Source of the DNA: a virus | Reading direction: 5' to 3' (one strand) | DNA length: 64,000 bases | Virus record (IMG/VR): IMGVR_UViG_3300034095_000847 | Shown here: positions 44,212 through 53,689 of the stretch, in pieces | Numbering within the stretch: the first letter of the stretch is position 1 | Layout: each line of letters begins with the position of its first letter | Position numbers and translations under genes: made by a program | Notes under the pieces: generated by a model | Databases searched by the model: none | Told to the model about the DNA's origin: nothing | What the model saw: the letters and a program-made list of their open reading frames with translations, nothing else

Positions 44212-44381
44212 AAATATCTCTCACAGATTTTAATGAAATAGTTCGGGATTCTGAAAAACCGATTTATATTCAATGTGGATTTAATAGATTTGCTATAGGT
44301 ATAATTAGTGAAGAAGAAGATTGTATATTATTAGTAATAGAAGAAGACGCAAATAACCCGTGTAAAGGAGAAAATAAATGA
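44193..44381 (+). CDS. hypothetical protein
   Basis: 62-aa ORF overlapping both neighbours. Confidence 0.45.
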   Translation: MRRNRVKISLTDFNEIVRDSEKPIYIQCGFNRFAIGIISEEEDCILLVIEEDANNPCKGENK

Positions 44382-45154
44382 TAAAATTAGATCAACTGAA
44401 GAAGATTTGCCCGAACAATAAACAACCTGAAGCATTACTTGAGGTTCTTAATAAAGTTCTACCGTTATATGAAATTAATACCAGAAAACGAGTTGCTGCT
44501 TTCTTGGCACAATGTGGACACGAATCTGCTCAGTTTACTGCCTTGAAAGAAAACTTGAATTATTCTGCCGATGGTCTTTGTAAAGTTTGGCCAAAAAGAT
44601 TTATCTCTGTTGCAATGGCTGCTCCTTATAATCGTAATCCAGAAAAGATTGCTAATAAGGTTTATGCCGATAGAATGGGTAATGGTTCAGAAGCATCAGG
44701 TGAAGGATTCAAATTCCGAGGTCGTGGATGTATTCAATTAACTGGAAAGGATAATTATTCGAAATTTGCTAAGTCTATTGGTAAAACATTAGATGAAACT
44801 GTTGCATATTGTGAAACATTAGAGGGTGCTATTTGTTCAGGTGCGTTCTTCTGGCAAACTAATAAACTAAATCAATATTGTGATTCTAGTGAGTTTACTA
44901 CATTAACCAAAAGAATTAATGGTGGTACTATTGGTTTGAAAGACAGACAACATCATTATGATATCGCATTGAGTGCTATTGATGAAGATGTATTTTCTAA
45001 ACCAGTTCCTGTTGCTATTGTAGCACCTGCTGTAGCTGCTGCTATCATTGCTCCTATTGTATTAGTAGAAGTTGCAATTCCTGATGAACAAGCAGTAGAG
45101 AAAGACGATGACTTTCTGGATTCTGTTTCTAAATTCTTCACGGATTTGTTTTAG
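44378..45154 (+). CDS. glycoside hydrolase family 19 endolysin
   Basis: AAFLAQCGHES, ENLNYS, FRGRGCIQLTGKDNY, TKRINGGTIGL. Confidence 0.92.
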   Translation: MIKLDQLKKICPNNKQPEALLEVLNKVLPLYEINTRKRVAAFLAQCGHESAQFTALKENLNYSADGLCKVWPKRFISVAMAAPYNRNPEKIANKVYADRMGNGSEASGEGFKFRGRGCIQLTGKDNYSKFAKSIGKTLDETVAYCETLEGAICSGAFFWQTNKLNQYCDSSEFTTLTKRINGGTIGLKDRQHHYDIALSAIDEDVFSKPVPVAIVAPAVAAAIIAPIVLVEVAIPDEQAVEKDDDFLDSVSKFFTDLF

Positions 45155-45162
45155 GATATAAT

Positions 45163-45921
45163 ATGAATAAATTTTTATTATTACTATTGTTATCTAGTAA
45201 TGTATTTGCCAATGGCATTGATGATAAATGCCCTAAAATAGTTATTTGGGGCGCTCCTCAGATAACTAAAGAAGGCAATAATCAATACATATGTAAATCT
45301 GATTATGCTATAAATTATGATTATAAGACTAAAGTAGCTTATTTTGTAGTTGAACATATTACTAAAGATGAAATTGCAGTTAAATCTGCTTCTAGAAAAG
45401 ATGATTTTCGGGAAGATATGGAAGTTCCTGTTGAATATCGAGTAACTTTAAAAGATTATACAGGTTCCGGTTTGGATAGAGGACATATGGCTCCGGCAGC
45501 AGACTTTGTATCTAACTCTAAGTTAATGTCCGAATCTTTTTTCTTATCTAATATGATGCCTCAAGCACCAGGAAATAATCGAGGTATTTGGAAGTCAACA
45601 GAAGAACGTGTTAGAGCTTGGGCAACTAAATCAGATGTATATGCAATAACAGGTACTCACTTTGATAAAGGTTATAAAACAATGGGTAATAAGGTAGGTA
45701 TTCCTACTCATGTTTATAAGATTGTTATTCAACCAGCAAATAAACGTATGATTGCTTTTTGGTATCCAAATGAAAAATTAGATCCAAAGCAAATTGCAAA
45801 ATATGTGGTATCAGTTAAGGACATAGAGGCTAAAACTGGTATTGATTTTTCACCTAGAATTCCTAAAGATTTAAAACCTTTGGAAACTATTGTCGCAAAT
45901 TACGAAGATTGGAATAAATGA
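45163..45921 (+). CDS. secreted DNA/RNA non-specific endonuclease (NucA/EndoG family)
   Basis: Signal peptide; DRGHMAPAAD, ESFFLSNMMPQ, N.GIW..E. Confidence 0.9.
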   Translation: MNKFLLLLLLSSNVFANGIDDKCPKIVIWGAPQITKEGNNQYICKSDYAINYDYKTKVAYFVVEHITKDEIAVKSASRKDDFREDMEVPVEYRVTLKDYTGSGLDRGHMAPAADFVSNSKLMSESFFLSNMMPQAPGNNRGIWKSTEERVRAWATKSDVYAITGTHFDKGYKTMGNKVGIPTHVYKIVIQPANKRMIAFWYPNEKLDPKQIAKYVVSVKDIEAKTGIDFSPRIPKDLKPLETIVANYEDWNK

Positions 45922-46319
45922 AAAGATTAATATTGATTGTTTTATTTGCAACCTTATCTGGTTGTGCAATGCTTGATGCTTATAATATGGCTGGATTTGA
46001 TGCTAATGAATATCAACTAGCAACAAAAGTTAGGTCTAAGGCAGAAATATCTAAAACAGATTGTCCTGATGTAGCATTAACTAGACGCAATGTTAGTAGT
46101 ATCTTAAGTGTTGCAACTGAGTTCAAGAATTATACTGCTAGTATTCCCCATAATGAAGAAGCAACTGATATGTCTAAGAATCTTTTACTTGAAGTTCAAG
46201 GATTATCAGACAGATATAAAACTACTACACCATCCGTACCATATTGTTTTACTAAGATGAATATCATTGAACGATCTGCTAAAACTATTCAAACTGTATT
46301 AGGAACTAAGCCACGATGA
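45918..46319 (+). CDS. putative lipoprotein
   Basis: MKR + hydrophobic stretch + lipobox LSGC. Confidence 0.7.
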   Translation: MKRLILIVLFATLSGCAMLDAYNMAGFDANEYQLATKVRSKAEISKTDCPDVALTRRNVSSILSVATEFKNYTASIPHNEEATDMSKNLLLEVQGLSDRYKTTTPSVPYCFTKMNIIERSAKTIQTVLGTKPR

Positions 46320-46585
46320 AAATTAATGAAGTCTTAAACCAGTTAAATGGTTATGATGCTAAAGAGAATGAAGAACTGGAAACTATTGCTGCAACGGTAC
46401 TTGACTTAACTAAGATGTATGAAGAAAAAAGTATATCTGATTCTGAATACAAAGAACTGTTATCTGATTTACAATTGGAAAAGTCTATTACAATGGATGC
46501 TTCTGATTTGAATGCTAAAGCACAATTGAAGTTTATTATTGATACTGCAATTACTATTGCTGCTACAGCTGCCAAGGCAATCTGA
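46316..46585 (+). CDS. hypothetical protein
   Basis: ATGA overlap with the upstream ORF. Confidence 0.6.
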   Translation: MKINEVLNQLNGYDAKENEELETIAATVLDLTKMYEEKSISDSEYKELLSDLQLEKSITMDASDLNAKAQLKFIIDTAITIAATAAKAI

Positions 46586-46914
46586 TGAAGAAACTACTAT
46601 TATTATCTATACTATTATTTTCAACGCCTATATTTGCTGGGGATACATATGTAAACCCTGCAATATGTCCTGAATGTGATATTGAACTTAAATATGAAGT
46701 TAAAATATTCAATAAACATATTGGAGAAACATCATTATTAAATTCTAAAATAATTATTGATGGGTTTGCTCCAATGCCGTGTAATTTTATACAGAAATGT
46801 AAAAAACCAATATACAAACAACAACTTGCCACATCTTTGAAAGTATTAAAAAAAGATATTGCTGTGCTTGAAGCGATAATGTCGGATGACCCTTTAATAC
46901 CATTGCGTAACTAA
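46585..46914 (+). CDS. hypothetical exported protein
   Basis: Signal peptide MKKLLLLSILLFSTPIFA; CPEC. Confidence 0.6.
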   Translation: MKKLLLLSILLFSTPIFAGDTYVNPAICPECDIELKYEVKIFNKHIGETSLLNSKIIIDGFAPMPCNFIQKCKKPIYKQQLATSLKVLKKDIAVLEAIMSDDPLIPLRN

Positions 46915-46915
46915 T

Positions 46916-48964
46916 ATGAAGAAACTACTTTTATCCCCTTGGCTTTCCTTAGTAACATTAGGTTTAATTATAGGGTTAAGAGTAGTTGACCCAACATTTG
47001 TAGAGAGTATTCGCCTTCGGTATTTTGATACTCTCCTTACACAAGATATTCAACAATCAGATATAAAAATAGTAAATATAGATGATGCATCCCTAAAAGA
47101 AAAAGGTCAATTCCCATTCCCTCGGAATGAATATGCTAATCTTATTAAGGATTTGTATATCCGAGGTGCTGGTCTTGTTGTTTTTAATCTCTTTATGCCT
47201 GAAACTGATAGATTTGGTCAAGATGATGCCTTAACACAGGTTCTTCAAGAATATCCAGTTGTATTACCTCAAACTGGTACTAATGAACCTTTCACTGAAA
47301 CTTATAAACCATTTAGACCAGGAGTTTCTGTTATAGGTACTGGTGATGTAGGAGTAAAATATGAAAACATACTTCCAAATATACAAGTCTTCAATGATAA
47401 TTCTGTTGGTATTGGTGTCGTTAATACACTCCCAGAAATTGATGGCGTTACCAGACGAATCCCAATGGTGGTCAGTTCCAAAGGATTATTGTATCCGAGT
47501 ATCAGTCTCGAAACCTTGCGTGTTGCATCAGGAGATCCATCATTCCAAGTTAAAGTCAACAATGGATCAATCGAAGCAGTCAGAATACCAAAGTTCGGAA
47601 GAATCAATACAGACTCCCTCGGTCGCATTTGGATTAAACCAAATACCATTAGTGAATATTCATCAAGCAAACTCCCAGAGTCCTTTGGTTCCGCAATCGT
47701 CATTGTTGGACTCACTGGAAGAGGGCTCAACAACCCCGTTGCAACTTCTGCTGGATCAGTCTTTCCACATCACGTTCAAGCAGCAATTTTAGATACACTT
47801 ACAAAAGGTATAAATATCTCAAGACCCGATTGGGCAACTGGTGCAGAGTTACTTACTGTATTGGTATTAAGTATCATATCAATTTTAATAGCAAGGTGGA
47901 AATATGGAATTCTTATATTTTGCGGCATCATTATCTCTCTTTATCCTATTTCTAATTATCTATATACCAACCTATATTATCTTTTCGATATTACATTACC
48001 TGTATTTGCAATTGTCACAGTTTATGGTCACACTTATACGGTCAAATTCTTAACAGAATTAGGTCAGAAACTCCAAATCAAAAAACAATTCGGTTCTTAT
48101 GTTTCACCTATTATGGTAGAGAAACTTCAGAAGAATCCAGAATTGATTAAACTTGGTGGTGAACGTAAAGAACTTTCTATTGTTATGACTGACCTTCGGG
48201 GATTTACTACTCTAGGTGAATCTTATGGTGATGATGTAGAAGGTCTGACTGCCATTATGAACGATTATATGACTGCTATATCAGAACCAGTATTAAAGAA
48301 TGATGGGTGTCTTATCAAGTTTATTGGTGATGCTAGTCTTCACGTTCACGGTGCTCCTTTAGATGATATCAATCACGCAAAGAATGCTGTTAAAACTGCA
48401 TTAGAAATGATTGCTTCTGTTGATGGATTCAATGAAACTTTAGTAGCTCAATGTAAACCAATTATAGGTATGGGAGCAGGCGTTAATACTGGTCAAACTC
48501 TTATAGGTAACATTGGTTCAAAGACTAGATTTGGATATGATGTATTAGGCGACTCAGTATCTACTGCTGCTAGATTAGAAGGTCAAACTAAATCGTATGG
48601 TGTATTATTAATCATTGGACCTGAAACTGCTAAACTTGTCAAAGATGATTACTTTGTTATTAAGTTGGATAACATTGCTGTAAAAGGAAAGACAGTTGGA
48701 TTAGACATCTATACAGTATTACAACCAGATAGATACAATAGATTAGAGTTTGCTAACACTAGAACACTACATAATAAGATGTTAAAGCATTATAAGAAAC
48801 AAGAATGGGCATATGCCATTACACATTGTATGGATTTGAAAGGTTCATTTGATGGTGAATTAGATTACTACTATAATATGATGAGAAAAAGAATAACAGA
48901 ATATATGAATGATGAGTCTTTCCCCAAGAACTGGAAAGGAACTTTTGTGGCAACAAGCAAGTAG
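46916..48964 (+). CDS. CHASE2-domain class III adenylate cyclase
   Basis: IVNIDDASL..KGQFPFPR and DGVTRRIP (CHASE2); TM helices; TDLRGFT, KFIGDA, YDVLGDSVSTAARLEG. Confidence 0.92.
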   Translation: MKKLLLSPWLSLVTLGLIIGLRVVDPTFVESIRLRYFDTLLTQDIQQSDIKIVNIDDASLKEKGQFPFPRNEYANLIKDLYIRGAGLVVFNLFMPETDRFGQDDALTQVLQEYPVVLPQTGTNEPFTETYKPFRPGVSVIGTGDVGVKYENILPNIQVFNDNSVGIGVVNTLPEIDGVTRRIPMVVSSKGLLYPSISLETLRVASGDPSFQVKVNNGSIEAVRIPKFGRINTDSLGRIWIKPNTISEYSSSKLPESFGSAIVIVGLTGRGLNNPVATSAGSVFPHHVQAAILDTLTKGINISRPDWATGAELLTVLVLSIISILIARWKYGILIFCGIIISLYPISNYLYTNLYYLFDITLPVFAIVTVYGHTYTVKFLTELGQKLQIKKQFGSYVSPIMVEKLQKNPELIKLGGERKELSIVMTDLRGFTTLGESYGDDVEGLTAIMNDYMTAISEPVLKNDGCLIKFIGDASLHVHGAPLDDINHAKNAVKTALEMIASVDGFNETLVAQCKPIIGMGAGVNTGQTLIGNIGSKTRFGYDVLGDSVSTAARLEGQTKSYGVLLIIGPETAKLVKDDYFVIKLDNIAVKGKTVGLDIYTVLQPDRYNRLEFANTRTLHNKMLKHYKKQEWAYAITHCMDLKGSFDGELDYYYNMMRKRITEYMNDESFPKNWKGTFVATSK

Positions 48965-48970
48965 GATATT

Positions 48971-49156
48971 ATGAAAAAAGTGTTTGGAAGAATTGTGAGT
49001 GAGATATTATATCTACTTGGTGATTGGGTTAGTTATCCAATGGCTTATCTTGATTGTGGTTGGTTATATCCAACTTATAGCAAATTGATGGGTTGGAGTG
49101 GTGATGTTCAAGATTGGGCAGGTAACGATAAACCTTGGACTAAATTAAGAGAATAA
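48971..49156 (+). CDS. hypothetical protein
   Basis: AGGA RBS; 61 aa, Trp-rich. Confidence 0.6.
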   Translation: MKKVFGRIVSEILYLLGDWVSYPMAYLDCGWLYPTYSKLMGWSGDVQDWAGNDKPWTKLRE

Positions 49157-49302
49157 TGGAAGCTCAGTTCGATTTAGAAAGAATGAAAGAATCTATAGAA
49201 TGTGCATTCTATACCATGCCAGGAGGTCTGACATTTGAAGAATTCTTAGACTTTATGTATAAATTAGGAGAAGAAGATGAAGTGGAAAACCCCGACTTAT
49301 AA
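49156..49302 (+). CDS. 48-aa hypothetical protein
   Basis: TAATG coupling; MEAQFDLERMKESIECAFYTMPGGLTFEEFLDFMYKLGEEDEVENPDL; not in the ORF track. Confidence 0.5.
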   Translation: MEAQFDLERMKESIECAFYTMPGGLTFEEFLDFMYKLGEEDEVENPDL

Positions 49303-49351
49303 AGATATCAGAATAGGATTTGAAGTTACTTGTTATATTTTGAATAGGTAA
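49277..49351 (+). CDS. pqqA: pyrroloquinoline quinone precursor peptide PqqA
   Basis: MKWKTPTYKDIRIGFEVTCYILNR (24 aa) with the E-x-x-x-Y core; AGGAG RBS at 49266-49270. Confidence 0.88.
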   Translation: MKWKTPTYKDIRIGFEVTCYILNR

Positions 49352-49358
49352 ATGTATC

Positions 49359-49395
49359 ACATAGTGTACATAAAGACTTATTATGTACACTATGT
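49359..49395. terminator. perfect 15-bp inverted repeat between convergent transcripts (putative bidirectional terminator)
   Basis: ACATAGTGTACATAA-AGACTTA-TTATGTACACTATGT. Confidence 0.75.
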
Positions 49396-49410
49396 ATCAT
49401 ATTTAATACA

Positions 49411-49767
49411 TTATTCTTTAGCTTCAGCCATCTTTTCTTTAGTTCTACCAAAAGCAGTAATACCGATAATAGCACCCATAGATAGATGATATAATCCTCC
49501 GCCTTGTAATGTAACTGCTTGCCACATTTCTAAATGTTGTCCAGGATTCATATATTGAAGTACATTATATAGAATTGGACCAACCATAAAGTCAAATAGA
49601 CAAATTGCCATATAACTAATAGCCATCATTGGTCGCCATTTAGAAGTCATAAAATCTTCTTTTACTGCAGGTGAGACTGGTGTAGGTTCTTTTGCTAAAT
49701 CAATCATTGGTTCAATTTCCTTTTTAATTACTGGTTTTCTAGGTTTTCTCACTACTATATCTGCCAT
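49411..49767 (-). CDS. putative holin (3TM/GTA-holin-like)
   Basis: KWRPMMAISYMAICLFDF...LYHLSMGAIIGITAFGRTKEK; GGAG RBS before ATG 49767. Confidence 0.6.
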   Translation of the reverse strand: MADIVVRKPRKPVIKKEIEPMIDLAKEPTPVSPAVKEDFMTSKWRPMMAISYMAICLFDFMVGPILYNVLQYMNPGQHLEMWQAVTLQGGGLYHLSMGAIIGITAFGRTKEKMAEAKE

Positions 49768-49768
49768 A

Positions 49769-50827
49769 TTAATTTGCTCCTTGTTTAATAAAAATTTTAT
49801 TAGTGGTTGTATCTGCACTTTGCAATTTCACCGTTGTTCCATCCTGTACCAGTGTTATATTGTAACCTCGGTCTTTGTTGAGTAATAATGTAGCGCTATG
49901 TTTTACTGATCTTTGTACCATCCAATTAGTCTGTTTATCAAATATGTACACTTGATTCTGTGAATTATATCCAGGAGCAAATGTACCTACTGCAAAAGCA
50001 TCTTCTAATGCATTTGCCAAATATTCTATCAATAATGCATCAACATCTAATTCATTAAACTTTGCATACGGGTCAATGAATACTCTTACAGATAAAGCAT
50101 CTTTATCTAATCCATTAAAATCTAGTGATGAACCAGATTTATTATCCTCAATTAATTTTTGTGTAATCTCTTTTGGTGGTTTTACTATCATCATATTAGT
50201 AATAGCAGATTCATTGATTAACAACACTACCGGCTTCAATGGTTTAATTTCATTTGAAGTTGTTACTGTAGCCTGAAAAGCTTGATTCAATACAACAGAA
50301 CCTACCGCAGTTCTAACTTCAATTTCACCTACTGAACCATCTAAGTTAGGTAACAATATAACCATTGACTGACCAATTTCATCAACTGTCATAGTGAAAG
50401 CTGTACCTCGAACCGCTATAGTTGCTGTAGGTGTATTAATAGCCACATTCTTATTATTAGCATGCGCTATATTACCAGAGGCATATCGTACAGTACCAAT
50501 AGCGCATTTCAATGCCAACTTACCGACAGACTTGTTATTAGGATCATAGACGAAATCATCTATCACCAACTTACTATTATCTGTTACTTTTACTTGTGTA
50601 TCATCATCAAAAGATATACCTACTTCACCTTTACCTGTTTCAACTATATCTAATGATTCTATACTAACATCTTTCTTTGATTCTATTACTGTTTTATCAC
50701 GTGTGATAGAAGCATTGCCTTTATGATTTATTACTGTACCAATACCAGCATTAATGTTGTGTGATATTAACAGTAGCGCCAGAACCAGTAAGATTAACAA
50801 TGGCCGAATTTGGATTTGTTGTTCCAT
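49769..50827 (-). CDS. exported FecR-domain protein
   Basis: Signal peptide; DIVETGKG...F.DDT.V.V..NS.L.ID...TPTATIAVRGTAF. Confidence 0.85.
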   Translation of the reverse strand: MEQQIQIRPLLILLVLALLLISHNINAGIGTVINHKGNASITRDKTVIESKKDVSIESLDIVETGKGEVGISFDDDTQVKVTDNSKLVIDDFVYDPNNKSVGKLALKCAIGTVRYASGNIAHANNKNVAINTPTATIAVRGTAFTMTVDEIGQSMVILLPNLDGSVGEIEVRTAVGSVVLNQAFQATVTTSNEIKPLKPVVLLINESAITNMMIVKPPKEITQKLIEDNKSGSSLDFNGLDKDALSVRVFIDPYAKFNELDVDALLIEYLANALEDAFAVGTFAPGYNSQNQVYIFDKQTNWMVQRSVKHSATLLLNKDRGYNITLVQDGTTVKLQSADTTTNKIFIKQGAN

Positions 50828-51461
50828 CTTGACTAATTCCTATGGTATTATTGCTTCCAATATTGGATATGGCGATATTATTACCAGCAATAAGATTAGT
50901 ACCATTAGCACCAGTTTGAGTAGTTGTGATTGCATTACCAGACCCCGTTACTATAAAAGTATTCTCAGTGTATTTACTATTAATAGTGCTCGTTAAAGTG
51001 TTATTACTACCTGTAATGTTTGAAAGATATGAATAGTTTCCAGAATCATGTAATACTCCAATATTCAATACTGATGTGTTATTACTACCCGTGAAATTTA
51101 AACTTAAAGTACCTGAACCAGTACCCATATTACCCATATTTAAATCAGTAGAGTTGCTATTACCAGTTTGTGTAATATCAGCAGTTGCTCCGCCACCAAT
51201 TAGATTACCTGTTATAGCATTATTCATACCATCTTGTATAATATCAAACAACATAGAGTTGCCTTCTATTTGAAAAGAAGGTGACCCAATAGAATCTGGG
51301 TCACCTACAGTATTATTTGCGCCGGTTTGTGTAATATTTACAGTAGAGTTATCAGCATTAGTTTGATCAATATAAACAGAATTGCCTCCACTGTCTCCTA
51401 TTGATGATTGATTTATTACTGTAAGCATAACAAACAGTAATAGATTTCTTATGATGTTCAT
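50751..51461 (-). CDS. curlin-like secreted repeat protein (CsgA/CsgB-like)
   Basis: Signal peptide; N/G/T/S-rich repeats ITQTGANN, IIQDGMNN, ITQTGNSN, TGSNN; directly downstream of csgG. Confidence 0.7.
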   Translation of the reverse strand: MNIIRNLLLFVMLTVINQSSIGDSGGNSVYIDQTNADNSTVNITQTGANNTVGDPDSIGSPSFQIEGNSMLFDIIQDGMNNAITGNLIGGGATADITQTGNSNSTDLNMGNMGTGSGTLSLNFTGSNNTSVLNIGVLHDSGNYSYLSNITGSNNTLTSTINSKYTENTFIVTGSGNAITTTQTGANGTNLIAGNNIAISNIGSNNTIGISQDGTTNPNSAIVNLTGSGATVNITQH

Positions 51462-52250
51462 TTAATTATTCCTAAAAGTTGTTGAAAATTTCCATAATCT
51501 TTTTCTTTCGCCTTTAATGATTAATTCTTCCACTGCTAAATCTAATGCCGATTTAAGAGCATATATTCCTGCCTCAGTCTTAGTAGCACCAACTTCATTT
51601 TCAAATGATTGTGTTCCCATATCAAAAAACTTAAATACAGCAACACCAACCGTATAACTTAATATCGTCTTTTGTACATTAATAGTGAGTAAAACCTCAC
51701 CAGTTTGTGTACTGATTGCTCGTAATGAAACAGTTACCATATCTTCCTGATATTGTGTATCTGGTCCAATTCCCATATAACGAAGTCCAATACCACCAGT
51801 TCTAATATTAGTATCATACGATACTATTGATCCTTCAATTATCATACCGGCATAAAGAATCGAACCTATTTGTTTATCATCTTGTGCTTCATCACGAGCA
51901 GACCTAATCAATTGTCTTTCTTTTAATAAATTATCAAGTCCAACTCGTTCTACAACTCTAAACCAATTACCTTCACCGGCATCCTCCAATGACTTTAATA
52001 ATATAGATTCACCTCCTTGTGTTACAGCAGATGATAATTTTGCTATAGTGGCAGAATCTTTCCTTTGACCTGTCTTATCTAAAAATGAATATACAGCAAC
52101 AACTACCTTACCATCTTTAGGAGGAGGTAAGATTATTTCTCTTTTTTCCTTAACTGCTAATACTTCAGGTTCATTAGTAAATACATTAAACGGAGTTAAT
52201 ATACCACCTGAACATCCAGTTAATAATATGCACAATAATATAATACGCAT
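51462..52250 (-). CDS. csgG: curli secretion channel CsgG
   Basis: Lipobox LTGC; VAVYSFLDKTGQRK, SSAVTQG, WFRVVERVGLDNLLKERQLIR, IIEGSIVSYD. Confidence 0.93.
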   Translation of the reverse strand: MRIILLCILLTGCSGGILTPFNVFTNEPEVLAVKEKREIILPPPKDGKVVVAVYSFLDKTGQRKDSATIAKLSSAVTQGGESILLKSLEDAGEGNWFRVVERVGLDNLLKERQLIRSARDEAQDDKQIGSILYAGMIIEGSIVSYDTNIRTGGIGLRYMGIGPDTQYQEDMVTVSLRAISTQTGEVLLTINVQKTILSYTVGVAVFKFFDMGTQSFENEVGATKTEAGIYALKSALDLAVEELIIKGERKRLWKFSTTFRNN

Positions 52251-52681
52251 TAGAATGTAAAACTACCGACAGGTATTATTACTTGTGTTACATTACCATC
52301 CGCACCTGTAATAGTCATTGATATTTGGTCAGCTGTCTTGGTATACGTTATAGTATTACCTTCAATCTGAACTGTTCCACTATTCTTTGGATTTTCACCA
52401 AATAAGTTGTTAATCAATTGGGTTGATAATTGAGCATAAACACGGCTTTCAAAGTTATTCAGAAATTTCGAAAGATTAGTGTTCTTAGCTAATGCTGCAG
52501 CATCCTTGGCATCTTGTAATTTCTGTACCTCTAATGCTTGTTTTCTAGTTGTTTCAGTATTTTCTATAGTTTGAACATGTGAAGAATATCCTATACCACT
52601 AAAGGCAGGCGATTTAAATGAAAAGATTTGTTCTGCTAATACATTACTTGATAATAATAAAAATAATATTAGAATTCTCAT
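52250..52681 (-). CDS. csgF: curli assembly component CsgF
   Basis: Signal peptide then FSFKSPAFSG (cf. CsgF FQFRNPNFGG); F..N.ESRVYAQLS.QL...LFG. Confidence 0.85.
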   Translation of the reverse strand: MRILILFLLLSSNVLAEQIFSFKSPAFSGIGYSSHVQTIENTETTRKQALEVQKLQDAKDAAALAKNTNLSKFLNNFESRVYAQLSTQLINNLFGENPKNSGTVQIEGNTITYTKTADQISMTITGADGNVTQVIIPVGSFTF

Positions 52682-52941
52682 TCGTTATCCTTTTGCTTAT
52701 GTGCATTCTCCCGCATTTGTAACACAGTGTTTAGTTTTGCTGTGAGTCTAAGTAAATCATTATCAAGTAATCGTATTCTATCAATCAAAGTGATTAATTC
52801 TTTTGATGCTTCACCTAATACAGGATTAATTTCTTCAATGGTAAATGACCATACATACTTTACCATTCGTAACATATAACCTGCTGCTATGATTGGAAAA
52901 CCATATTTGTTTATAAGTTCGGCAATTTGTGTTATGTCCAT
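52678..52941 (-). CDS. small membrane protein (TM + coiled coil), paralogue 3
   Basis: INKYGFPIIAAGYM...LIDRIRLLDNDLLRL. Confidence 0.7.
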   Translation of the reverse strand: MDITQIAELINKYGFPIIAAGYMLRMVKYVWSFTIEEINPVLGEASKELITLIDRIRLLDNDLLRLTAKLNTVLQMRENAHKQKDNE

Positions 52942-53225
52942 TAGTCTCTCCTAGCATCATTTTTGCCATCCATTCTGGATATTCTGTCTAAATCCGGCCT
53001 AAGTCCTAATACCGAAGATATAGTAACATCAATCTTAATCAATTCATGTGAGCAAGTTTTAACCCTATTCTCTAAAGCCATTACAATACTTGCTAATGTT
53101 TTAACTGAAGTAATAACATCACTTAAAACAAATTTTAATGCTGTAAATATGAATGCTCCGAGTACACAACTACCAAGTATTGGAGTTAGTGTGTCAGAAA
53201 AAAACTTAATATATTCTGGATTCAT
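52941..53225 (-). CDS. small membrane protein (TM + coiled coil), paralogue 2
   Basis: PILGSCVLGAFIF...LENRVKTCSHELIKID. Confidence 0.7.
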   Translation of the reverse strand: MNPEYIKFFSDTLTPILGSCVLGAFIFTALKFVLSDVITSVKTLASIVMALENRVKTCSHELIKIDVTISSVLGLRPDLDRISRMDGKNDARRD

Positions 53226-53653
53226 TTCTTAAGTTTTCCTACTTTCTCAACTATTTTAGTAGCATCATCAACTACCTCTTGTGCTTTTTCAACACCATCA
53301 GAAATCTTTTTCATTATAGTTGATTGTTTCTTTGGTGTAGACGTAACAGGAGTAGCACCATTATTATTCATTATTGCTGCAACTTCATGATGAACTTTTA
53401 ACGGAAGTGAATCAACATCAAGTGAATTAGATACTAATTTATCTAATTCTAATATATCAACGTTCATTTGACGAACTCTACCGTCCATGGACTTAATGAG
53501 TCCTATAATTTTTTTGATTGATTTTATTACAGATCCAAGCACTAATGAAATTGCTTGCATTATGAACCATCCACATACCACTGCTAGTGCTATAGGGAAT
53601 CCACATTGTTGGACAAGACTGAAAAAGTCAAAGTTAGGAATTCCGATATCCAT
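53222..53653 (-). CDS. small membrane protein (TM + coiled coil), paralogue 1
   Basis: VQQCGFPIALAVVCGWFI...MDGRVRQMNVDILELD. Confidence 0.7.
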   Translation of the reverse strand: MDIGIPNFDFFSLVQQCGFPIALAVVCGWFIMQAISLVLGSVIKSIKKIIGLIKSMDGRVRQMNVDILELDKLVSNSLDVDSLPLKVHHEVAAIMNNNGATPVTSTPKKQSTIMKKISDGVEKAQEVVDDATKIVEKVGKLKK

Positions 53654-53681
53654 ATAATTAATCCATTAAATATATATATCC

Positions 53682-53689
53682 TATTTATA
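53682..53689 (-). promoter_or_regulatory. T4-type late promoter heading the minus-strand csg operon
   Basis: TATTTATA on + reads TATAAATA on -, about 30 nt upstream of ATG 53653. Confidence 0.75.

Follow-up and report, generated by a model that had tools for sequence, protein, structure and literature searches.

How a bacteriophage comes to carry a curli-type secretion operon that runs head-on into a membrane adenylate cyclase, and what such a combination could do in an infected cell, is the question raised by IMG/VR virus record IMGVR_UViG_3300034095_000847, of which one stretch of 64,000 nucleotides, hereafter the window, was analysed. Positions 46916-53689 of the window are made up of two converging transcription units: a minus-strand operon encoding three small membrane proteins (p1, p2 and p3), CsgF, CsgG, a curlin-repeat protein, a FecR-domain protein and a holin-like protein, and, facing it on the plus strand, the gene for a CHASE2 class III adenylate cyclase. 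A preliminary description had taken this arrangement as a new candidate for a trans-envelope signalling system. The observation is real and the reading reasonable, but the system is not new, since a block that includes FecR and the cyclase has been in the literature since 2022 (PMC9599517); the region is a rearranged copy of that "viral curli" block, in a T4-like phage and beside lysis genes. The explanation that we favour, with modest confidence, is a late-expressed exporter of curli-type fibres joined to a FecR/CHASE2 envelope sensor that makes cyclic AMP (cAMP). What the window adds is a variant architecture and two corrections, namely that the genes labelled "HK" are not kinases and that the cyclase carries Ser in place of a catalytic Asn, rather than a new system.

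The function of this very abundant viral gene block has been called a mystery in three papers. Zaragoza-Solas et al. (2020) did so when reporting csgF and csgG in pelagimyophages (PMC7029224), while Buchholz et al. (2022), who described the phage Melnitz, suggested that the pore might serve as a gated trigger for lysis. Wittmers et al. (2022) reported the order HK-CsgF-CsgG-CsgA/B-FecR-(second CsgA/B)-adenylate cyclase in SAR11 podo- and myo-pelagiphages, with the second curlin frequent rather than constant, and found the block at all 65 GOV2.0 stations, with transcripts in metatranscriptomes and with its genes accounting for about 0.1% of assembled ocean viral proteins (PMC9599517). CHASE2 is unmentioned in all three studies, and FecR is read as an iron regulator.

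A megablast search of the region against the phage collection gave zero matches and relatives were found at the protein level only, where tblastn showed that Methylophilales phage Melnitz and Pelagibacter phage HTVC008M carry this gene set in co-linear order on a single strand, with 36-48% identity to the proteins of the window. The likeness to the pelagiphage type VIII secretion system (T8SS) region (PMC9599517, PMC7029224; HTVC008M; Melnitz, PMC9004378) extends to the gene families, the core order and the T4-like background, and all the families of the region described by Wittmers et al. occur in order in the window, except that the cyclase is inverted and a second curlin is missing. The differences lie in the cyclase, which is inverted so that it follows a GH19 endolysin on the strand that the two share, and which has Ser for Asn; in the slot of the second curlin, which is occupied by a GTA-type holin-like gene; and in the number of transmembrane (TM) paralogues, three rather than two.

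The genes named in the preliminary description all lie where it had placed them, each matches its family in Pfam, PHROG or NCBIfam profiles, and the minus-strand operon is as tightly coupled as was stated, with stops and starts that abut or overlap throughout. The CsgF homologue (52250..52681, minus strand; PF10614, 60.5 bits against a cut-off of 25.8) has a signal peptide and retains the segment by which CsgF enters the CsgG barrel, an N-terminal motif F-K-S/N-P-S/A-F-S/N-G which is nearly invariant and whose F, P, F and G are found in 63/63 phage CsgF sequences. CsgG (51462..52250, minus strand; PF03783, 183 bits against 20.8), the outer-membrane channel, is a lipoprotein with an LTGC lipobox, the Cys of which is kept in 60/61 phage homologues, and it aligns over its full length (residues 7-256) to the solved E. 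coli CsgG (3x2r) with an E-value of 4.6e-46. The protein encoded at 50751..51461 (minus strand) is recognised by Curlin_rpt (PF07012) with 24.9 bits against a cut-off of 20.7 and contains five tandem Curlin_rpt stretches, with N, G, S and T making up 55% of its residues; the NCBIfam CsgA model matches it with an E-value of 1.1e-5, far under the cut-off of that model. Its hydrophobic N-terminal leader, read from the sequence and under the threshold of TM prediction, marks it as a Sec-exported protein, and it is probably the substrate of CsgG and a fibre subunit. An 11-bp GC-rich hairpin followed by a T-run (51279-51306, minus strand) lies inside this gene, about 155 nt past its start, and may be an internal attenuator or a product of chance.

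Compared with the E. coli curli system (CsgG/CsgF/CsgE/CsgA/CsgB), the phage shares a full-length CsgG, the barrel-plugging CsgF motif and a secreted Curlin_rpt protein, but has a single curlin gene rather than the CsgA/CsgB pair, and its CsgG constriction is altered: the residues Y51/N55/F56 of E. coli are replaced by S/K/L in the window and by S or G, K or S, and F or L across the phage homologues. As the preliminary description had noted, CsgE is not recognisable; profile searches found none on a phage contig 99% identical to the window (contig C1 of G001), and CsgC and CsgD were not searched for specifically. The known hosts of phages with viral curli genes, SAR11 and OM43, themselves lack curli (PMC7029224; Buchholz et al. 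2022).

The operon opens with three paralogues, as had been claimed, all of which match phrog_18771: p1 (53222..53653, 143 aa, E 1.3e-14), p2 (52941..53225, 94 aa, E 3.4e-23) and p3 (52678..52941, 87 aa, E 3.1e-23), all on the minus strand. Each combines a TM helix with a coiled coil; in p1 a short N-terminus precedes the single helix (approximately residues 21-39) and a long C-terminal tail follows the coiled coil. Judging by the distribution of charges, the N-terminus is probably short and periplasmic and the coiled coil cytoplasmic. The third copy is confined, among the IMG/VR loci compared, to the subclade of the window. The gene class of p2 was labelled "HK", for histidine kinase, by Wittmers et al. 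(PMC9599517), an identity that can be set aside for p1-p3: neither HisKA nor HATPase_c was found in any of them, even at relaxed E-values (5 for Pfam, 0.1 for NCBIfam), the proteins are 87-143 aa long, and the sole H-box-like candidate, the His of a "SHEL" motif in p2 (H60), is variable, being His in 37/59 orthologues and Asn in 19/59. The named resemblances that do exist are weak and point to small holin-like families only. Thus p3 matches the holin family phrog_4898 with an E-value of 1.7e-6, and p2 falls in the Atlas among viral hypothetical clusters only, the nearest named ones being YvrJ (0.90) and Holin_BhlA (0.86).

Transcription of the operon probably starts from TATAAATA, an exact match to the octamer of T4-type late promoters at 53682..53689 (minus strand), 28 nt upstream of the p1 ATG in a divergent intergenic region of 66 nt. 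The late promoter proposed earlier is thus suitably placed, but copies of the octamer are no commoner in the window than chance predicts (12 against an expected 18); enrichment was discarded as a line of support, and the argument rests on position rather than on frequency. At the other end, a 15-bp hairpin at 49359..49395, between the two converging units, is a likely bidirectional terminator.

Whether these genes belong together was examined in 80 IMG/VR loci fetched through CsgG and scored with profiles of each family. CsgF and the TM paralogues were present in 75/75 loci with room upstream, FecR in 65/65 with room downstream, and the cyclase in all 45 loci with at least 3.6 kb of sequence after FecR, so that the co-occurrence of the csg genes, FecR and the CHASE2 cyclase, which the preliminary description had put forward as a check on its reading, is borne out. 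Among the 62 loci with both FecR and cyclase, 21 show a 4-nt overlap of the FecR stop with the cyclase start; a second curlin-type gene stands between the two in 14 and other cargo in 19, and the cyclase is inverted in 8. Even where the paralogues have been relocated to the far side of the cyclase (L027, L030, L032, L066, L067, L070 and L071), they stay within the block. Synteny kept in 80 viral loci down to 30-45% identity shows that the parts of the block are linked by selection.

The exported FecR-domain protein (49769..50827, minus strand, 352 aa) has a signal peptide and a Pfam FecR match of 31.7 bits against a cut-off of 24, and it belongs to a family with more than 5,800 relatives among metagenome proteins. 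In an AlphaFold2 model built on an alignment of 57 sequences, a confidently predicted beta domain (approximately residues 28-205) is followed by a disordered acidic linker (205-280) and a small all-beta C-terminal domain (283-349). The N-terminal domain superposes on the CCSSD (6ovk_R), the domain for cell-surface signalling of the anti-sigma regulator PupR, with a Z-score of 15.2 and a root-mean-square deviation (rmsd) of 2.6 Å over 134 aligned residues, and on BDI_1681 with a Z-score of 14.0, so that profile and fold agree on a periplasmic FecR-type domain. Beyond the cleavable-type signal peptide the protein has neither a cytoplasmic anti-sigma domain nor a second TM segment, and for this reason it is best called a FecR-domain protein rather than a FecR. 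The operon encodes no sigma factor or TonB receptor, and no FecI/FecA partner lies nearby. The C-terminal domain, modelled alone, is compact and all-beta (predicted local distance difference test score 90.8) and has no clear match in the PDB (best Foldseek E-value 0.7; best Z-score in a wide structural search 4.1). Its "I-x-I-K-Q-G" ending recalls a curlin repeat, a resemblance that was rejected after hhalign against the phage curlin profile returned E-values of 0.008-0.02 and probabilities of 2-5%.

The fold also speaks against the reading of FecR as a sensor of iron or siderophores beside an ungated CsgG that lets nutrients or cofactors into the periplasm, an idea raised in PMC7029224 and PMC9599517 to which the missing CsgE and the altered constriction lend some colour and which we nevertheless consider very improbable, because the FecR domain is a protein-protein signalling fold and not an iron-binding one (6ovk), the protein consists of periplasmic parts only and has no FecI/FecA nearby, and CsgF and the curlin are left unexplained, the last objection having been made in PMC7029224 as well.

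The cyclase (46916..48964, plus strand, 682 aa) has the domain architecture of CHASE2 class III enzymes that had been ascribed to it: Pfam CHASE2 matches with 119 bits over residues 14-323 and Guanylate_cyc with 61.5 bits over 418-593. A first TM helix is followed by a periplasmic CHASE2 domain (approximately 22-306), further predicted TM segments (approximately 307-380), the catalytic domain and a conserved C-terminal tail, with hydrophobic segments at 6-24 and 307-349. Alignment to the solved CyaB (3r5g) and Cya2 (2w01) and to 47 phage homologues showed that five of the six canonical catalytic residues are present. Four of them do not vary in any of 48 phage homologues: the two metal-binding Asp residues (D426 and D472), Lys468, which specifies adenine, and Arg553 of the transition state. 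The second adenine-specifying position, 542, is Asp in the window and varies across the homologues (21 with Asp, 23 with Thr and 4 with Ser), and Ser549 stands at the position of the transition-state Asn.

Bacterial genomes provide the precedent for placing these two proteins side by side. The 80 bacterial CHASE2 cyclases most similar to that of the phage (25-35% identity, with those of Alphaproteobacteria foremost) were compared, each with 10-kb flanks; a FecR homologue occurs in the flank of about 30 and is directly adjacent in 22, at a median gap of 63 nt. The pairing of FecR and CHASE2 proteins in bacteria that had been asserted earlier is therefore recurrent, and it has been published for the Burkholderia BiofilmReg operon, which combines a LysM-FecR protein with a CHASE2 histidine kinase (PMC5192318), and for a Campylobacterota cluster of CHASE2 cyclase, FecR protein and phosphodiesterase (PMC9239204). 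Phage and bacteria thus share an exported FecR-domain protein whose gene adjoins that of a membrane CHASE2 sensor and is often coupled to it. The bacterial pairs differ in their neighbours, which include class II cAMP phosphodiesterases, cyclic-nucleotide (cNMP)-binding, GAF-HD, FHA and PP2C proteins, CHASE2 Ser/Thr kinases, MshE-like ATPases or type I secretion genes, but never csg genes, whereas the phage block has no adjoining receiver or phosphodiesterase.

Secretion genes are found in the closest alphaproteobacterial loci (L084, L086, L088 and L096), where a type I secretion ATP-binding cassette exporter lies upstream of the cyclase. L086 and L096 have a confirmed HlyD protein, neighbours of the same family cluster occur in L084 and L088, and in L084 and L086 a LapG-like BTLCP protease lies downstream of the cyclase and converges on it. 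In L096 a 977-aa protein with no signal peptide carries an N-terminal FecR domain and a NIDO domain and looks like a secreted substrate. The cluster resembles a Lap-type adhesin system in which the CHASE2 cyclase would take the place of LapD. From such gene neighbourhoods it appears that the FecR/CHASE2 sensor is associated in bacteria with secretion and adhesin systems, and that the phage block is a union of a minimal curli exporter with a FecR/CHASE2 sensor cassette, a union seen only in phages. The sole experimentally studied example that we found of an outer-membrane protein signalling to inner-membrane CHASE2 cyclases is that of S. meliloti, in which CyaD1, CyaD2 and CyaK receive an extracellular protein signal via the outer-membrane barrel NsrA and pass it on to Clr (PMC13001267 and references therein); there the barrel is NsrA rather than CsgG, the receiver is known, and the pathway is cellular, not viral.

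Conserved linkage, the FecR-CHASE2 pairing and the NsrA precedent hence support in part the trans-envelope circuit of the preliminary description, though not its novelty. In the explanation that we favour, the minus-strand operon would be transcribed late in infection from the T4-late-type promoter; lipoprotein CsgG and CsgF would form a curli-type channel in the outer membrane of the host, and the curlin-repeat protein, rich in N, G, S and T, would leave through this channel as the fibre subunit. The periplasmic FecR-fold protein and the CHASE2 domain of the cyclase would constitute a two-part envelope sensor with cAMP as its output, and the two or three TM/coiled-coil paralogues would act as constant inner-membrane accessories and not as histidine kinases. 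In the subclade of the window the sensor may feed into lysis, or be co-expressed with it; the tie is proposed because the inverted cyclase follows the endolysin on the same strand and translation of the holin-like gene is coupled to that of FecR. Contact between FecR and CHASE2, assembly of the fibres, a link between pore and sensor, a target of cAMP and a role in lysis are all presumed here. A sensor pair of FecR and CHASE2, found beside bacterial adhesin-secretion genes as well, would turn the vague label of "regulator" into a testable mechanism, and the culturable systems Melnitz/OM43 and HTVC008M/SAR11 make the question experimentally approachable.

Several findings weigh against this explanation. 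None of the 80 bacterial loci has csgG, csgF, curlin or a p-type paralogue within its flanks, so the joining of pore and sensor is specific to phages and lacks a bacterial precedent. A search of the near-identical phage contig for a gene of a cNMP-binding protein, the would-be receiver of cAMP, found none. Ser replaces the transition-state Asn in the window and in 20/48 homologues, always together with Asp542. That Asn is reportedly important for catalysis in mammalian class III cyclases (Yan et al. 1997), and the activity of the phage enzyme may accordingly be low or dependent on activation; Ser549 is, all the same, kept between lineages that are about 40% identical (the window and Melnitz), which argues for a working variant rather than decay. 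The junction of FecR and cyclase is a hotspot for cargo in other clades, with a second curlin/PA14 protein in 20 loci, a HemE-like gene in 9, and HAD-like and metallophosphoesterase genes, and for this reason the holin-like gene, whose Pfam match is below the cut-off, may be incidental cargo in its turn.

Pairwise distances across the phage loci bear on both sides. The CHASE2 half of the cyclase correlates with FecR, CsgG, CsgF and curlin at r 0.86-0.90, whereas the catalytic half is decoupled (r 0.62-0.71 with the same envelope genes); L007 and L008, for instance, share 74% and 75% identity with the window in CHASE2 and 94% and 55% in the catalytic part. The catalytic half has apparently been exchanged between lineages by recombination within the cyclase gene. 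These correlations fit a periplasmic half tied to the envelope parts, but plain physical linkage would explain them equally well. Once CsgG distance is controlled for, FecR retains a partial r of 0.56-0.65 with curlin and CsgF and one of only 0.27-0.31 with CHASE2, and the notion of a specific co-evolution of FecR and CHASE2 was dropped; as all the genes share one history, the distances are uninformative on this pair.

The alternative that survives best, although we regard it as unlikely, holds that the block is a device for timing lysis, in which CsgG/CsgF act as a gated pore or a pinholin-like trigger, the paralogues and the holin-like protein as holin and antiholin, and FecR and the cyclase set the moment of lysis. 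The holin-like membrane protein (49411..49767, minus strand, 118 aa) is the natural starting point. Translation most likely begins at the ATG at 49767, one base past the FecR stop, with GGAG 9 nt upstream. The resemblance to holins noted in the preliminary description holds in PHROG (phrog_3427, E 1.6e-4) and in the Atlas (0.94, with 26 of 30 matches in GTA_holin_3TM clusters) but falls short in Pfam, where GTA_holin_3TM (PF11351) scores 23.7 bits under a cut-off of 24.8, and 21.5 bits for the copy on the near-identical contig. That copy is the only GTA_holin-like match on the contig; the T4 holin T model matched neither the contig nor any control genome. Among the IMG/VR loci the gene is restricted to L003-L009, the nearest relatives of the window (82-100% CsgG identity), which share with it both the holin-like gene after FecR and the inverted cyclase; one further locus, L052, has the inversion. 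A GH19 endolysin (44378-45154, plus strand; phrog_181, E 4e-71) lies upstream of the cyclase on its strand in the window and in L004 and L006-L009, the loci of the subclade that extend past the cyclase, and in L009 the endolysin match comes within about 20 nt of the cyclase open reading frame (ORF).

This arrangement gives some support to a link with lysis in the subclade, where the position of the block, wired between a holin-like gene and an endolysin, makes a natural testing ground for lysis timing. The late-type promoter and the holin resemblances of p2 and p3 are in keeping with the idea, and Buchholz et al. argue likewise from CsgGF structure and synteny. Lysis genes, however, adjoin the module in only 7/80 IMG/VR loci besides the window, the slot of the holin-like gene holds unrelated cargo in other clades, and the holin matches are all weak or sub-threshold. 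A lysis pore would explain neither the conserved curlin nor the second curlin/PA14 adhesin-like protein of marine clades, and the CsgG channel is far too narrow for the release of virions (PMC7029224).

Less likely still is that the block serves only to make fibres, which would allow "sibling capture", cause aggregation or shield the cell from superinfection, while FecR and the cyclase would be mere regulators or passengers. Zaragoza-Solas et al. (2020; PMC7029224) and Wittmers et al. (2022; PMC9599517) read the block in this way. In favour of it, the minimal parts for curli export, namely pore, CsgF and curlin subunit, are complete, and the second curlin of HTVC008M bears a PA14 adhesin-type domain. 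Cultures infected with Melnitz, on the other hand, showed no clumping (Buchholz et al.), and a late operon leaves a phage little time for transcriptional feedback via cAMP. Passengers would hardly be expected to accompany the csg genes wherever there is enough DNA, or to overlap each other by 4 nt.

A more elaborate version of the fibre-and-sensor explanation, which we consider more doubtful again, is suggested by the structure of the FecR-domain protein. Residues 26-121 of the model superpose on the RIN plug of MpIBP (5ix9, determined by nuclear magnetic resonance) with a Z-score of 10.5 and an rmsd of 2.1 Å over 73 of 76 residues, at 23% identity; the match was at first assumed to lie in the C-terminal domain, and structural alignment places it in the N-terminal one. 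LapA-type adhesins are kept in their outer-membrane pore by RIN, a plug on the periplasmic side (PMC5550230), and among the closest alphaproteobacterial relatives of the phage cyclase are some that lie beside Lap-like genes. The phage protein differs from LapA and MpIBP in being small, with a Sec signal peptide, in having CsgG rather than a TolC-like protein as its pore, and in having no protease nearby. Going by the model, the N-terminal domain might plug CsgG, the disordered linker of 75 residues might thread the pore, and the C-terminal beta domain might join or cap the curlin fibre outside; the state of the plug (occupied, pulled or released) would be read by CHASE2 and converted to cAMP. 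If this were true, events at the surface, such as contact, a superinfecting phage or the fibre load, would become cAMP and be passed on to holin/endolysin timing in the clade of the window.

Next to the converging units, the plus-strand genes that precede the cyclase (44378..46914) are so closely packed that their stops and starts overlap or lie a few bases apart; they are context and not a proven part of the module. After the GH19 endolysin come an exported Endonuclease_NS with a signal peptide (45163-45921, 183 bits), a lipoprotein (45918-46319), an 89-aa coiled-coil protein (46316-46585) and a secreted protein of 109 aa (46585-46914). The endolysin ends in a long hydrophobic segment rich in Ala, Val and Ile, followed by an acidic tail; the segment may be a membrane anchor, which would be unusual for an endolysin. 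In L025 and L034 a homologue of the Endonuclease_NS protein separates FecR from the cyclase, and in L011-L013, L019, L020 and L022 one lies a few kb upstream of csgG, so that an exported nuclease recurs near the block.

Two occupants of the FecR-cyclase slot in other phages were also observed. Gene gp018 of HTVC008M (L002 6639-7964), annotated as hypothetical, encodes a PA14 domain and a curlin repeat and would be an adhesin-type head on a curlin tail. In the marine loci L060, L062, L064, L065, L076, L077 and L080-L082 the slot is taken by a gene of about 311 aa which, judged by eye, looks like HemE (uroporphyrinogen decarboxylase).

Two further observations bear on the host. The phage contig near-identical to the window was binned in a metagenome-assembled genome of 3.2 Mb and 80% completeness, a placement that is probably a binning artefact, and this genome is consequently not to be taken as that of the host. 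Between the cyclase and the holin-like gene, a plus-strand ORF of 24 codons (49277-49351) matches Pfam PqqA with 34.7 bits against a cut-off of 21.1 and is conserved in L003, L004 and L006 (79-96%); such a putative phage-borne precursor peptide of pyrroloquinoline quinone (PQQ) hints at a methylotroph or another PQQ-using host.

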